This document shows, one piece after another, positions 2,263 to 37,918 of a stretch of 49,183 nucleotides of DNA. The first letter of the stretch is position 1, and each line of letters starts with the position of its first letter. The notes under the pieces are model-generated. The model worked only from the letters and a program-made list of their open reading frames with translations. It made no database searches and was not told the DNA's origin. This stretch comes from Crenarchaeota archaeon 13_1_40CM_3_52_17. Its GTDB lineage: Archaea; Thermoproteota; Bathyarchaeia; 40CM-2-53-6. Location: the NCBI GenBank assembly GCA_001918745.1, contig MNGN01000043.1, positions 1 through 49,183 on the forward strand. Direction: 5' to 3'. The position numbers were made by a program, and so were the translations under genes.

Positions 2263-3390
2263 CTAGGATTTGGCTAGTAGTTTCCCATCCTCCATGACCT
2301 TCTGACCGCTAATTGCTACTGTCGCTTTGGTCATCGAGGCCCACCATGTGCCGCTCGCGGCGTTCTTTCCCCCTTTTGCGCCGCTATGGCCGAATCCGAC
2401 GACGGTGCTTCCAAGGACTTTATCATCCTGGATGAACCCGTGCCGGAGCTTGGGGTTCAGTCCGAATCCGAAATACCCGAAGCGGTTCTCATCGCCGGTT
2501 CCTTCTCTAAGATAACGTTCGAAAATCTCCTTTCCAGATCTCGCAGAAAACTGTTTGATCCGGCCCTGTGCAACTTGAAATGTCAGGTCCTCAACCTGGC
2601 CTTTTCCGGTGCAGATTAGCGAGTCGTAGACTAATCTCCCTTCGGCACTGTCTTCCGCGGCCGAAACCTCGATTCCACCGGTTGGCAAGAAGACAACCTC
2701 TCCTCTCTCGGCCTTCTCTTCTGTTGCTAGGCCATATGAAAAATCGGGTGGGCGCTTGTCAAGTCTGAATCTGAAGTCAGTTCCAAAGGGTGTTGTCAGA
2801 TGCACCATTCCTTCCCCGCCCATCAAGGGTTCCAACGCACGTCCAAGGGAAGCCATCTCTCCCGAGTCAGCGCAGCAGCCATCAAACATGACTCGTCTCC
2901 ACTCCTCCAAATTCAGACCCATAGCCTCTGCGCGTTCCGGGGTCGCGAGAGTGGCTTCGATACCCACCATCCTCACTTTGTTCTTTCTGGCTAGCTTTGC
3001 CCACTGTTCAGCAAAGCTGCTCTTATCATACCTAGCGTCAAGCCATACACTAACCGACCTACGTCTATCAACAGGAATCTTATCCCACGGGATAGGCTTT
3101 CTCGGTCCCAAAGTGTAGATGTAGATGTCAGTCTCTTCCAGGGCAGCGCCAATATGGGCCGGCAAATTGTCAAGGAGTTCCAGTGGAGCATCGATCATCG
3201 AGCGCAACCAAAGGTCTTCCAACTGAACCGTCAGAAGCACCTCGAGACTACGTTTCATAGACTCTAAGGCGAGATCTGACGCTAGCTCAAGCGTGTGGTC
3301 CCAGCTATGGATCCACACCCGCTGACCGGGCTTGGTGCCAAGACAACCATCAAGAACTTGTTTAGAGAGCGTCGCGTGCTCGGTATCCAT
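2263..3390 (-). CDS. Peptidase M29 (thermophilic aminopeptidase)-like protein, metal ligands apparently lost
   Basis: GTDFRF, LPTG, AEGRLVYD, GxGLNP and DDKVLG family motifs are present. Expected Glu/His/Asp ligand positions are substituted. Confidence 0.75.
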   Translation of the reverse strand: MDTEHATLSKQVLDGCLGTKPGQRVWIHSWDHTLELASDLALESMKRSLEVLLTVQLEDLWLRSMIDAPLELLDNLPAHIGAALEETDIYIYTLGPRKPIPWDKIPVDRRRSVSVWLDARYDKSSFAEQWAKLARKNKVRMVGIEATLATPERAEAMGLNLEEWRRVMFDGCCADSGEMASLGRALEPLMGGEGMVHLTTPFGTDFRFRLDKRPPDFSYGLATEEKAERGEVVFLPTGGIEVSAAEDSAEGRLVYDSLICTGKGQVEDLTFQVAQGRIKQFSARSGKEIFERYLREGTGDENRFGYFGFGLNPKLRHGFIQDDKVLGSTVVGFGHSGAKGGKNAASGTWWASMTKATVAISGQKVMEDGKLLAKS

Positions 3391-3420
3391 TCGTGCAAGT
3401 CCTTACTTGTTCCGGAAGGT

Positions 3421-4235
3421 CTACTTGAGGTGTTTCCTGCCAATGTAGATCAGATGTTCGGCGGCTCCGTGCAGGCTCGGGTCCTTTCCAAGTCTATAGT
3501 TTAGGTCGACCCAGGAGTCGAACTCATCGCCCTTCAACTCGTTGATTTTTTCTTCGATCATGCTGATGGTGCCTTCACAACCCATGAGGTCTAGGTCTTC
3601 GAACCCGTTTCTTTTCATTGACGGGCTGATTTCTGCAGAATGGGTAAAATACGAATTTGTGAATCCTACACGCGCCTTTGAGGGTATGCCGGTAGCAGAT
3701 GGACCCCACACACCTGTTTCCAAAAGCTCATTTCCCGGCGAAAGCCACTCGGGTTCATCCTTCGCCGACCAGCGCAGAGGAGCATATCGTGTAATGAAGG
3801 TCGCGAATACAAATCCGTTCTTCTCGATGACCCTGTGAGTTTCCTTCACAGCCCAGTCTCGACTGTCTTCTTCGAGGAGATGATACAATGGCCCCACCAA
3901 CAACACAACATCAAAGCTACTGTCTTTGAACCGACGAAGGTCGGTTGCGTTTCCACGTAGACACTCCGTGAAGCTTACACCTTCTTCTTGGGCCTTCTTC
4001 TGAGCGAGCTGAAGGCAACCCTCAGAGAGGTCTAACAAGGTGACTCGATATCCGAGTTTGGCGAGGGCGATAGAATATCGGCCTGGACCCCGCCCACATC
4101 CAATACTTCAGCTGGGAAATGGGGGAGATAGTCTTTGAGTGCTCTCAGCGTAACAGCGAATTCTGTTCTGTGATGGTCAAGTCTATCCCACTCATTCTGA
4201 GAGTTCTTATCATAGAATGCTTGAACCTCGTCCAA
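3421..4235 (-). pseudogene. Class I SAM methyltransferase split by a 1-nt deletion (G-run at 4088-4091)
   Basis: Adding one G restores VLDVGGGPGRYSIALAKLGYRVTLLDLSEG and joins ORFs 4032-4235 and 3421-4038. Possibly an assembly error. Confidence 0.85.
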
Positions 4236-4324
4236 GTTCCCTAAGTCCGCATTACTCTCAGATTAGGGGTTGCATGTACGTCATTACAACGGTTTAACCA
4301 AATGCCCTTCGATAAATGGTTCAT

Positions 4325-4511
4325 ATCTGGACAGTGGACACTCCGGTTCTGCCAAGTCTTCGGTTGTTCTAGGACTTGGCTTGCTCTCATCGACTCTGAG
4401 GATTACCGTCGTCGGCGGGTTCCCCTTCATTGCTTCACTTGAGAGCCCTTGCGCCTCAGAGACGAGTAGTCTCTTCTTGGCAGGGAACGGTCGAACCTCA
4501 ACCGCCCCCTC
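4325..4511 (-). ncRNA. Putative TnpB omegaRNA-like RNA: scaffold ending in CAGAACC plus flank-derived guide GGAGTGTCCACTGTCCAGAT
   Basis: Stems GGGGGCGGT/ACCGTTCCC (loop TGAGGTTCG), GCTCTCA/TGAGAGC and GCCAAGTC/GACTTGGC covary with copy 2. Loop GGTTC is complementary to the terminal GAACC. Confidence 0.6.
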
Positions 4512-4638
4512 ACGCCCGTAGCGTGGTAGCTTGGCCCATTGCCAGGCAAGGATTTTACGGTGGCCAACCAACCAGATATCCCGGTTCACGCCTCTCACGT
4601 GGTCGGAGTCACTCCCCTCATTCCAACATGACAGGCCC
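4345..4638 (-). mobile_element. Non-autonomous TIR-bounded (MITE-like) element carrying a tnpB 3' end/omegaRNA scaffold, copy 1
   Basis: Ends GGTTCTGCCAAGT (4345) and ACATGACAGGCCC (4638) form a 9/13 inverted match. The minus strand reads RGRLRFDRSLP, then after a frameshift EAQGLSSEAMKGNPPTTVILRVDESK, resembling an archaeal TnpB C-terminal tail. Homologous to 37467-37678. Confidence 0.7.
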
Positions 4639-4720
4639 ATACAACGAACGCCTTAGCCTGTGTGGGTCATTCCTCGAACATAACACTTAGAGATGACCGA
4701 AGCTACCACCCACCAGCAAA

Positions 4721-5710
4721 ATGAAGAGCTTGCAAGTGCCCACACTCCCATTGCAGATCAGCGAGTTCAGGGCTGATGACTACGGGAAGTTGGCCCACGT
4801 CTTCGGCTCCATCTTTCCTGATTACGACCGGACACCGGAGGAGTGGCGGTTTGAAGATGAGAGTCTCGACAAGTCAAAGTTTCATTTCAAACGATACTCG
4901 TGTTTTAGCCCGGAGGTCCAAGACGCTGTTGGGTTTGCTCAGTGTCAACATATTCCCTGGATGTATCATCCAAAGAAGCTCTGGGTCGATATCTGGGTCG
5001 ATCCACAGCACCAGAGGAAAGGCATTGGGAATGCACTCTACGAGCGGCTGAGCCAGGACTTCAAAGTTCTTGGCGCCGTCACATCTTGGACGGGCGTGAG
5101 GGAGGACATGCCGTTTCCGATCAAGTTCGCCATGAACCGAGGGTTCCATGAGAAGATGAGGGCTTGGGAATCACGTCTCAACCCGGCCACGGTCAACCTC
5201 TTAGCTTTCCAAAAATATCTGGACAAAGCGTCCCAACATCGAATCCACTTCGTCACATTAGCCGACGAAATGAGTAGCGATCCTGCATGTTATGCCAAAC
5301 TTCATGCTCTGGTTCAAGCCGTCTCAGCAGATATTCCTCGACCTGAACAGTTCACTCCTGTCTCTTTCGAGCAATGGTCAGCTTTCGAGATGAAAAGTCC
5401 CAACTTGGTCCCTCAAGGCTACATGATCGCGAAAGATGGCGACAGGTACGTGGGCATGAGCACTGTGTGGAAGGCTCAGAAGGACCCCAAGGGACTCTAT
5501 CAGGGATTGACGGGAGTCGTACGCGACTATCGGGGACGTGGAATAGCGGTCGCTTTGAAGCTCAAGGTCATCGAGTTCGCAAGGAACAACAAGTACGAGA
5601 AGCTGAAGACCTGGAACGACTCGACCAACGCGCCCATGCTGGGGATTAACGTGAAGCTTGGCTTCAAACGAGAGGTCGGCTGGATAACTTTCGAGAAGAA
5701 CCTGGCATAG
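4721..5710 (+). CDS. Tandem-domain GNAT acetyltransferase
   Basis: Two acetyl-CoA loops (VDPQHQRKGIG and TGVVRDYRGRGIA) and NxxxNAPMLGINVKLGF. Confidence 0.9.
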   Translation: MKSLQVPTLPLQISEFRADDYGKLAHVFGSIFPDYDRTPEEWRFEDESLDKSKFHFKRYSCFSPEVQDAVGFAQCQHIPWMYHPKKLWVDIWVDPQHQRKGIGNALYERLSQDFKVLGAVTSWTGVREDMPFPIKFAMNRGFHEKMRAWESRLNPATVNLLAFQKYLDKASQHRIHFVTLADEMSSDPACYAKLHALVQAVSADIPRPEQFTPVSFEQWSAFEMKSPNLVPQGYMIAKDGDRYVGMSTVWKAQKDPKGLYQGLTGVVRDYRGRGIAVALKLKVIEFARNNKYEKLKTWNDSTNAPMLGINVKLGFKREVGWITFEKNLA

Positions 5711-37000: not shown

Positions 37001-37432
37001 CTACATCATTGGAGATTGGAGCCTTGCGATCGCGGAGGAGACCTGGTCAACATACTCTTTCAATCTGGCAAGCATACTGCTTGCGGTAATGACACCGATA
37101 ACCCTCTTGTCCTTCAGGACTAGAACTCTGCGGATCCCTTTCCGCGCCATCAGCTCCGCAATCTGATCTAGCCCCACGTTCGCGTCCACGGATACCAGAT
37201 CGCTCGTCATGATATCACTTAGTTTCATGTGTGAAGGATCCTTTCCCTCAGCCACTATCTTGGAGAGGTAGTCCCACTCGGTCACTATCCCCTCTGGGCT
37301 GCCGGTGGAAGATGCGATTATCGCGAAGCCGTGTCTCTTCGCTTTCATTTGTCGGGCAGCCTCCAGAGCAGTCGTATCCCGCGGTAGAGAGAGAAACTCC
37401 TTCTCAACCACGTCCTTTGCAACCAAGACCAT
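37001..37432 (-). CDS. CBS domain pair protein
   Basis: GIVTEWD, DIMTSDLVSV, GIRRVLV...GVIT. Confidence 0.9.
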   Translation of the reverse strand: MVLVAKDVVEKEFLSLPRDTTALEAARQMKAKRHGFAIIASSTGSPEGIVTEWDYLSKIVAEGKDPSHMKLSDIMTSDLVSVDANVGLDQIAELMARKGIRRVLVLKDKRVIGVITASSMLARLKEYVDQVSSAIARLQSPMM

Positions 37433-37446
37433 AGGTAGGATCTGAG

Positions 37447-37629
37447 AGAGCTCGAATAATTAATAGGGTTCTGTTAACTCTTCGTCTGATGAGTTAGCTT
37501 CGGGGCATCGACTCGGGGGATTACCGTAGGCGTCGGGTTCCTCTTCATTGCTTCATCTGCTCCGCCTTGCGCCTCAGTTATGGGAGGCCGGGAACGTGCG
37601 AACCTCACCCGTCCCCGCCGGGCCAGGTT
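37447..37629 (-). ncRNA. Putative omegaRNA-like RNA copy 2 with flank-derived guide CTATTAATTATTCGAGCTCT
   Basis: Stems CGGGGACG/CGTTCCCG, GCCTC/GAGGC, CGGAGCA/TGCCCCG and GCTAACTC/GAGTTAAC. Ends in CAGAACC like copy 1. Confidence 0.6.
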
Positions 37630-37678
37630 AATCCTAGGTATAGGTTAGAGAGGCATCCGACAATAAGTTAACAGAGCT
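37467..37678 (-). mobile_element. Non-autonomous TIR-bounded (MITE-like) element carrying a tnpB 3' end/omegaRNA scaffold, copy 2
   Basis: TIRs GGTTCTGTTAACT (37467) and AGTTAACAGAGCT (37678) match at 11/13. Flanks ATTAATAG and GTTAGTAA differ only by transitions. Minus strand reads NLARRGRVRFARSRPPITEAQGGADEAMKRNPTPTVIPRVDAPKLTHQTKS*. Confidence 0.75.
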
Positions 37679-37918
37679 GTTAGTAATAATCGACATTTTT
37701 TTGCATGCAGTTTCCCTGTTGCGGCGGGGCCTATTTTGTAGGATTTGACGATCATCCTCCGCTTTGGCCTCTTTAGGCAAATCCATTCTTGTCATATAGT
37801 CTAGGCCCTCGGAAGGCAGGGAATCGACCTAATGCGCTCGGAGCCAGTCCAAACCCAAATCAATATCACCCAAGAGCGAAGCACATCTAAAGTGACGTGG
37901 GGGGCAAACGGACGAGGA

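Follow-up and report, generated by a model that had tools for sequence, protein, structure and literature searches.

Protein-free insertions in a soil bathyarchaeon as probable derivatives of tnpB elements with IS6-type ends that keep an omegaRNA-like scaffold

What are two short and diverged repeats without a protein gene, how did they come to lie where they lie, and why do both keep what looks like the 3' end of a tnpB gene? Both are found in a window of 49,183 nt, by which we mean the whole stretch of DNA analysed here, that is contig C37 (MNGN01000043.1) of the genome G000 (assembly GCA_001918745.1; 1.78 Mb in 66 contigs, 80% complete), and were compared with a genus set of 22 genomes, this one and 21 others. 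A sequence-only reading had taken them for RNA-only MITEs with IS6-type terminal inverted repeats (TIRs), which a DDE transposase moves in trans and which program a TnpB encoded elsewhere. It had also stated that classical IS200/IS605 elements lack TIRs, in agreement with Table 4 of PMC3119063, in which IS605-type elements are listed without inverted ends and without target duplications. We propose, and consider probable, that the window elements are derivatives of tnpB elements with IS6-type ends, moved in trans and keeping the omegaRNA scaffold.

The window itself encodes neither of the proteins concerned, as had been claimed from its open reading frames: tblastn with a 407-aa TnpB from the same genome gave two C-terminal tails and no tnpB gene on the contig, and profile searches of the 80% complete genome gave no match to Y1 TnpA (PF01797, to which six control genomes do match), to an IS6-type DDE transposase or to a resolvase. 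Rfam gave no match in the window at the gathering score and none at E ≤10 across positions 37300-37900, the surroundings of the second copy. On the minus strand the two copies share long identical blocks from about GAGGGG through CAGAACC, much as first described, with 72% identity across 122 nt in blastn.

The second copy (copy 2, 37467-37678, minus strand) is shown by blastn to be what an internal deletion has left of a 1.28-kb tnpB-only element: 212 bp, with ~46 nt from its left end and ~167 nt from its right. Aligned with the intact element at G000:C9:35237-36516, window positions 37675-37630 correspond to element positions 3-48 (85% identity) and 37633-37467 to positions 1111-1280 (91%), and the two ends of copy 2 are accordingly found ~1.06 kb apart in contig C9. 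The junction between them occurs at a single place in the genome; judged by its sequence, copy 2 is a one-off internal deletion that took out tnpB, a singleton and no member of a MITE family. The intact element is 1280 bp long with a single ORF of 407 aa (G000:C9:35286-36509), which matches Pfam PF07282 (E 1.5e-14), NCBIfam guided_TnpB (NF040570, E 5e-26) and the solved ISDra2 TnpB structure 8bf8 (E 4e-7), and in which the GVDRN, VLENI and DRD motifs look canonical. Further full or partial copies of this family (family 1) lie on contigs C62, C31, C19 and C9 and a second tnpB lineage, with ~42% amino-acid identity, on C31, C43, C28, C18 and C16, several of the tnpB copies in the genome being frameshifted; related genomes hold many other deletion derivatives whose junctions differ. 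Because full-length tnpB elements have the same ends, the window elements are, as far as alignment tells, non-autonomous derivatives of the tnpB-only elements of soil Bathyarchaeia and not a separate hybrid. A tnpB with 52% identity is also found in another archaeal class, at positions 2900-4210 of a Nitrososphaera sp. MAG record (L061), with ends of the same kind (GGCCTTGTTAAC ... GTTAACAGAGCC) and TAAAACC repeated at both sides, so the arrangement extends outside Bathyarchaeia.

The right-end part of copy 2 (37467-37633, minus strand) combines a TnpB C-terminal remnant with an omegaRNA-like scaffold. Its translated tail (37713-37477), on whose likeness to TnpB C-termini the first interpretation had staked its case, matches TnpB residues 337-407 with 64% identity in tblastn. 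The left TIR, AGCTCTGTTAACT (37666-37678, minus strand), can be aligned with its counterpart in 18 full-length copies and matches the right one, GGTTCTGTTAACT (37467-37479), at 11/13 positions, so that the extent of copy 2 and its inverted ends stand as originally drawn. It is flanked by ATTAATAG on the right side (37459-37466) and GTTAGTAA on the left side (37679-37686), identical at 5/8. In seven related genomes the site is empty, AATAATTAATAG being joined directly to TAACCGACA with a single ATTAATAG or ATTAATGG, and relative to these the window adds the 212-bp element and GTTAGTAA. The two flanks are therefore a decayed 8-bp target duplication, which the transitions between them had already suggested.

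The first copy (copy 1, minus strand) had been delimited as 4345-4638 with inverted repeats matching at 9/13, and here the boundaries have to be redrawn: related copies, empty sites and the alignment of ends place it at 4345-4740, a 396-bp MITE of a high-copy family (family 2) from a diverged tnpB lineage, and 4638 is not an element end. Read on the minus strand from 4740 downwards, its true left end is GGCACTTGCAAGCTCTTC. The left TIR, GGCACTTGCAAGCTCTTCATTT (4719-4740, minus strand), was defined in an alignment of 25 copies, in which the consensus of the family has GGCACTGTCAACTCTTCGGTTG on the left and GGTTCTGTCAAGTCTTCGGTTG on the right, with 19/22 positions matching. The omegaRNA-like scaffold, recognised by conservation, covariation and RNA contigs, spans 4345-4591 (minus strand) and includes the right inverted end (4345-4366). 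The target duplication is GACACTCC on the right side (4337-4344) and CACACTCC, matching at 7/8, on the left side (4741-4748); the genomes G007 and G012 are without copy 1 and have one GACACTCC at the empty site. Thus for both window copies empty sites are available in which each insertion equals the element plus 8 bp, and both elements are real insertions.

Copy 1 has four short relatives in the genome (on C4, C19, C28 and C48; 85-94% identity), all of which terminate exactly at CAGAACC. The 3.5-kb flanks of these five MITE copies have no gene in common in tblastx, and since their neighbour genes are unrelated the repeat is not a conserved gene leader. At least ~60 matches to the 390-bp family were found in 8 of the 22 genus genomes, a lower bound because no more than 14 candidates were scored per genome. 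The longest ORFs in 45 copies vary from 49 to 125 aa on either strand, so none is conserved, and the description of the elements as protein-free holds. The family is short and non-coding, has inverted ends that are those of an autonomous element, makes a duplication and exists in many copies, which is what defines a MITE. By sequence, copies 1 and 2 belong to different lineages, and we propose that the family of copy 1 was amplified after a tnpB-removing deletion like that of copy 2. Among the fetched loci, MITE positions 1-233 are matched by no full-length element, the nearest full-length right end (L057) has 81% identity over 93 nt, and no full-length tnpB has the family-2 version of the scaffold stem; copy 1 may be without a cognate TnpB. 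Identity among the MITE copies is 83-94% and different species have several insertions in common, some predating speciation, from which it follows that the amplification is old, and the system may be extinct here.

Some individual insertions deserve separate mention. Copy 1 has entered a GNAT acetyltransferase gene (4721-5710, plus strand; Pfam PF00583, E 3.6e-20) at its first codons, and the start codon and first seven codons of that gene now lie inside the left end of the element; in the region 4693-4760 element-free orthologues start ATGTCGAGACAGTGGACACTCCCG, and the frame in the window begins with an ATG at 4721 within that left end, giving the new N-terminus MKSLQVP. The MITE on C4 (G000:C4:25801-26259, aligned with window 4270-4732) has ~75 nt of the native right flank of copy 1 in common with the window, while its left flank is orthologous to another insertion (on G021:C12, duplication CGCCAAAC), which suggests that two MITE copies have recombined or that the contig is chimeric. 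Three MITEs of G021 (L106, L128 and L131) have a right end 8 nt longer (CAGAATC ACAGAACC), as would result from doubling of the terminal heptamer. One orthologous insertion (L112 on G018:C137 and L115 on G017:C13) has a different and longer left terminus (ATGGCGCCATGGCCATGGTTAG...) and an 11-nt flank repeat, TCGGGTTTAGC, in place of the usual 8.

Full-length elements and MITEs are alike in their inverted ends of 12-22 bp, which begin GGTTCTGT, and in their 8-bp duplications. The ends GGYTCTGTTAAC...GTTAACAGAACC are common to 18 full-length copies, drawn from the genus and from one sister genus. Among ~20 distinct full-length elements of family 1, five independent ones have perfect 8-bp duplications, two match at 7/8, two at 6/8, two have 9-bp duplications and the remaining elements have none. 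For the MITEs, both ends could be placed in 38 of 47 candidates; taking as well defined the independent insertions with flanks matching at ≥6/8 (n=18), the duplication is perfect over 8 bp in 13, matches at 7/8 in three and at 6/8 in two. Both the length of the duplication and the sequence of the ends are those that the sequence-only reading had ascribed to IS6 elements. In that family ends begin GGTTCTGTT and duplications are 8 bp; the annotated ISS1S of a Lactococcus plasmid has the ends GGTTCTGTTGCAAAGTTT, to be compared with GGTTCTGTTGA, GGTTCTGTTAAC, GGCACTGTCAAC or GGTTCTGTCAAG here, and an inverted-repeat scan of the Clostridium perfringens plasmid stretch with ISCpe7 gave no clear ends. 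The elements thus have the IS6 end pattern GG(Y)(W)CTGT and the 8-bp duplication, but unlike IS6 elements they encode no IS6-type DDE transposase, holding tnpB alone or no gene.

Where such a transposase could come from is suggested by two sister genomes, G003 and G007, which are the 2 of the 21 other genus genomes with PF13610 matches. The element at G003:C14:41545-44236 (2692 bp) has perfect 23-bp ends, GGTTCTGTCAAGTCTCCGGTGTT, and the duplication CCCGGAAT; in that of G007 (locus L127, 118-3202; 3085 bp) the ends are GGYTCTGTTAGGTCTCCGGCGCATAG and the flanks carry the duplication AGCGAAGA. The 8-bp duplications are perfect in both, and when the ends are compared as GGTTCTGTCAAGTCTCCGG and GGYTCTGTTAGGTCTCCGG, GGTTCTGTCAAGTCTCCGG is identical to the MITE right end at 18/19 bases; a reversed control pattern in the end-pattern search had no matches in 59 genomes. 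IS6-like genes between matching ends, of the kind for which the first interpretation had proposed a search, therefore do occur, on separate elements. Their proteins (383-402 aa) consist of a SWIM finger, a zinc ribbon and DDE_Tnp_IS240 (PF13610), and their best plasmid matches are annotated IS6 transposases at ~31% identity. They cover the full NF033587 (IS6 family) profile with 103-117 bits against an NCBIfam cut-off of 125, so that in this score, in their size (2.7-3.1 kb) and in the SWIM and zinc-ribbon domains of the transposase these archaeal elements differ from IS6 proper. Movement in trans thus finds support in the ends and duplications of the G003 and G007 elements, but not in the genome of the window, which has no IS6-like gene and no match to the G007 element; PF13610 likewise found no IS6-like transposase in the MITE-rich genomes G017, G018, G019 and G021 (89-95% complete). 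We infer that a separately encoded IS6-like transposase of the SWIM finger, zinc ribbon and DDE type is what most likely moves the elements.

The IS6-like elements of another genus (G057 and G068) were considered as partners and set aside, their ends being different (GGTAACGT...). They are 2.7 kb long (L123 and L124 on G057:C2, L125 and L126 on G068:C4), with a transposase of 425-494 aa and extra ORFs of 138-267 aa beside it. The G007 element lies 8 bp from AACAGAGCC, an outward-facing end of the same type that belongs to another element (L127 100-125, on G007:C27), and the G068 and G057 copies likewise lie in or beside TTACGTAA inside the ends of sister copies.

The part that both window copies retain was analysed in a right-end alignment of 77 regions from three Bathyarchaeal lineages and one Nitrososphaera copy. 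It supports 41 pairs in six helices, with 94.0% of the alignment cells paired, compared with 83.1% in shuffles (0/500 reach the observed value) and 31-46% when the partners are slid. Twenty pairs are changed on both sides and the covariation score is 0.269 versus 0.109, a strong signal of which much lies between a few lineages rather than in many independent events and which is modest inside the MITE family. One long-range stem, for instance, is GCGGGGC/GCCCCG, GCTCTC/GAGAGC, GCCTCC/GGAGGC and GCTTGC/GCAAGC in four lineages. The structure overlaps the tnpB 3' end and stops 7 nt short of the right boundary, and its terminal hairpin contains the right inverted repeat, bearing out the suggestion that the right TIR doubles as part of the scaffold end. 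Copy 2 (row L001 of alignment A2) retains all six covarying helices, and its RNA would end at 37467. In the MITEs, conservation of the majority base is 0.92-0.97 over most of the scaffold part compared with 0.73-0.87 in the left half. Within positions 4100-4900, contigs from soil RNA libraries (four libraries of three studies) cover ~4345-4636 only, although these contigs carry no strand, ends or level and the scaffold is multi-copy compared with single-copy control flanks; the uncovered stretches are not taken to be silent. Many of them carry variants, which indicates an origin in other copies or relatives, and one extends at least 10 nt beyond a right end. It would follow from this structure that the retained part is a structured omegaRNA scaffold functioning as RNA, and the ~50-100 nt kept behind the left end are probably a promoter.

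The same conservation could be that of dead relics, decayed ancient IS6-type tnpB elements in which shared ancestry and former coding constraint preserve the sequence. The divergence of the copies and the insertions older than speciation suit this account, and so do the missing transposase match in the genome, the lack of a cognate family-2 tnpB among the fetched loci, the 3/8 changes in the duplication of copy 2 and the frameshifted tnpB copies. Relics would hardly be expected, however, to conserve the scaffold half above the left half in MITEs that are protein-free, or to keep stems complementary by double changes, some of them within the MITE family; the RNA-library contigs gather on the scaffold only, and an intact 407-aa tnpB with its GVDRN, VLENI and DRD motifs is present in the genome. 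On balance we regard the relic account as unlikely, and return to the proposal of elements that keep a functional scaffold.

The target sites bear on this proposal directly. At 17/18 well-defined MITE insertions the motif TTR stands directly 5' of the left duplication (the three bases being T in 17/18, T in 18/18 and A or G in 18/18), which at a background frequency of 0.025 gives p ~1e-26, and no such motif stands beyond the right duplication at the same 18 insertions. Since TTR is already present in the empty sites, the motif belongs to the target DNA. Full-length family-1 elements have TTR at 4/9 well-defined sites and WTR, a class set after inspection of the data, at 7/9. In the window, copy 2 has TTA (37687-37689, minus strand; TAA on the plus strand), a candidate TAM that adjoins the left duplication 5' and also stands in the empty sites, and the three bases beyond the left duplication of copy 1 are ATG (minus strand), not TTR. 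An empty allele consists of TTR, duplication and flank and the guide would consist of duplication and flank, and hence TTR lies where the TAM of a TnpB must sit. A TTR beside the left duplication is what one would predict from the idea that each insertion programs a TnpB.

TTR might instead be a target-site preference of the transposase and not a TAM, the RNA playing no part in where insertions are located. Some DDE transposases do prefer certain sequences at duplication borders, and the connection of TTR with TnpB is hypothetical here. A symmetric transpososome is expected to prefer a palindromic target, however, and TTR is one-sided; the IS6-like elements that carry their own transposase (five elements, nine flank sides, with the triplets GCC, CTT, TTT, CTG, TTC, GCA, TCT, ACC and TTG) have it at 1/9; and it lies exactly at the TAM position for a guide made of duplication and right flank. 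Transposase preference is for these reasons quite improbable to us as the source of the motif.

We put forward the following hypothetical mechanism for the trans-moved, scaffold-keeping derivatives. The elements have the build of DDE transposons, with IS6-type inverted repeats (GGTTCTGT...) and 8-bp target duplications. Each window copy has kept, besides the two ends, ~50-100 nt next to the left one and 170-250 nt at the 3' side, the latter being the omegaRNA-like scaffold with the right inverted repeat in its final hairpin. A transcript leaving the right end would gain a guide composed of the 8-bp duplication and the flank; for copy 2, the predicted guide template would open with the 8 nt of ATTAATAG (37459-37466). 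This RNA would be bound by a TnpB from another locus, which would cut the empty allele (TTR, 8 bp, flank), and through repair from the occupied copy the insertion would be spread or retained. More tentatively, and with somewhat less than even confidence, we suggest that TnpB and its guide RNA select which DDE insertions survive, or even where they land, forming an IS6-coupled RNA-guided homing drive on which RNA-only MITEs are hyper-parasitic. An insertion would then be fixed only with TTR exactly 8 bp, that is one duplication, upstream of its left end, TnpB would cut every empty copy of the chromosome with repair copying the element in, and the RNA-only MITEs would exploit a transposase and a nuclease that are both encoded elsewhere.

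That we are dealing with plain IS200/IS605 (IS1341-group) elements or PATEs, which Y1 TnpA would move in single-stranded form and whose inverted ends would be incidental, is scarcely credible: the protein is TnpB, and tnpB-only elements and RNA-only PATEs are described as common in archaea (PMC3119063; 10.1101/2023.03.14.532601), but inverted ends and duplications are present and proven by empty sites, the genome has no Y1 TnpA match where control genomes match, and TTR lies 8 bp off the left end instead of abutting it. Of the features of IS200/IS605 elements, an encoded TnpB is found in the full-length relatives, the window copies keeping a C-terminal remnant only; the absence of inverted ends and duplication and an available Y1 TnpA (PF01797, 0 matches) are not. 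The likeness to the IS1341 group lies in a single TnpB gene with TNB/RuvC motifs, an RNA overlapping the tnpB 3' end up to the right boundary and a short T-rich motif at the left side; the differences are the 12-22-bp inverted repeats, the 8-bp duplications, a TAM candidate 8 bp off the left end and a genome with no Y1 TnpA match. Meers et al. (10.1101/2023.03.14.532601) describe RNA-only PATEs that need TnpB in trans. Like the omegaRNA-encoding PATEs of that account, the window elements are protein-free, keep both ends and the omegaRNA and would need TnpB from elsewhere, but in PATEs subterminal palindromes stand in place of inverted ends, no duplication is made and Y1 TnpA is the mover, whereas the elements here are true MITEs of a DDE-type element and lack the features that define a PATE. 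A homing role has been demonstrated for IS605 TnpB (10.1101/2023.03.14.532601), and by analogy the geometry of our elements would fit the transfer of this role to a DDE-type element. Altae-Tran et al. 2023 (PMC10691335) link TnpB branches to DDE transposases, the main text giving only IS630 with an adjacent transposase. These too are TnpB-family nucleases in symmetrical-ended, DDE-moved transposons; in comparison with the IS630-linked TnpB, our elements have a probable IS6-like transposase in trans, amplified RNA-only MITEs and a TAM-like motif offset by the duplication. A full-text literature search gave no link of TnpB to the IS6 family, and the supplements of PMC10691335 may list one. TnpB omegaRNAs in general resemble the scaffold here as structured RNAs that overlap the tnpB 3' end, up to the right boundary. 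Eukaryotic Fanzors occur in TIR transposons, which is the same arrangement of a TnpB-family nuclease within a symmetrical-ended, DDE-moved transposon.

Few prokaryotic genes are as abundant as that of TnpB. Its known role, homing that makes good the loss by excision, has to our knowledge been established only in the IS200/IS605 and IS607 elements, whose joints are scarless. The present data suggest that in prokaryotes a TnpB-RNA module can travel on an ordinary cut-and-duplicate transposon, so that the same nuclease and RNA would operate on another mechanical class, one that has inverted ends, is cut with a stagger and duplicates 8 bp. With its one-sided position, offset by the duplication, TTR provides a testable geometry for recognition of the empty site by the guide, and the RNA alone can evidently be the amplified cargo, in dozens of copies. 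This would bear on the modularity of guide RNA and nuclease en route to CRISPR-Cas12, on the origin of Fanzor-type arrangements and on the annotation of MITEs in archaeal genomes, and it provides material for tests in the form of a compact TnpB, a scaffold with known limits and a candidate TAM. If the homing drive is true, it would be a prokaryotic counterpart of the Fanzor-bearing TIR transposons of eukaryotes.

The repeats that self-BLAST finds in the genome include no transposase and consist only of the tnpB families, the MITEs, a duplicated oligoendopeptidase-like gene (C26/C62) and repeats of ~210 bp. The last form an unrelated family, with 80-87% identity and the common block TAGAGAAAATTTTCTGTC, at G000:C9:23231-23444, C9:28088-28294, C44:14770-14980, C57:3969-4190, C15:14155-14369, C24:5656-5866, C31:24803-25014, C66:16210-16421, C11:6258-6467 and C41:4633-4839.
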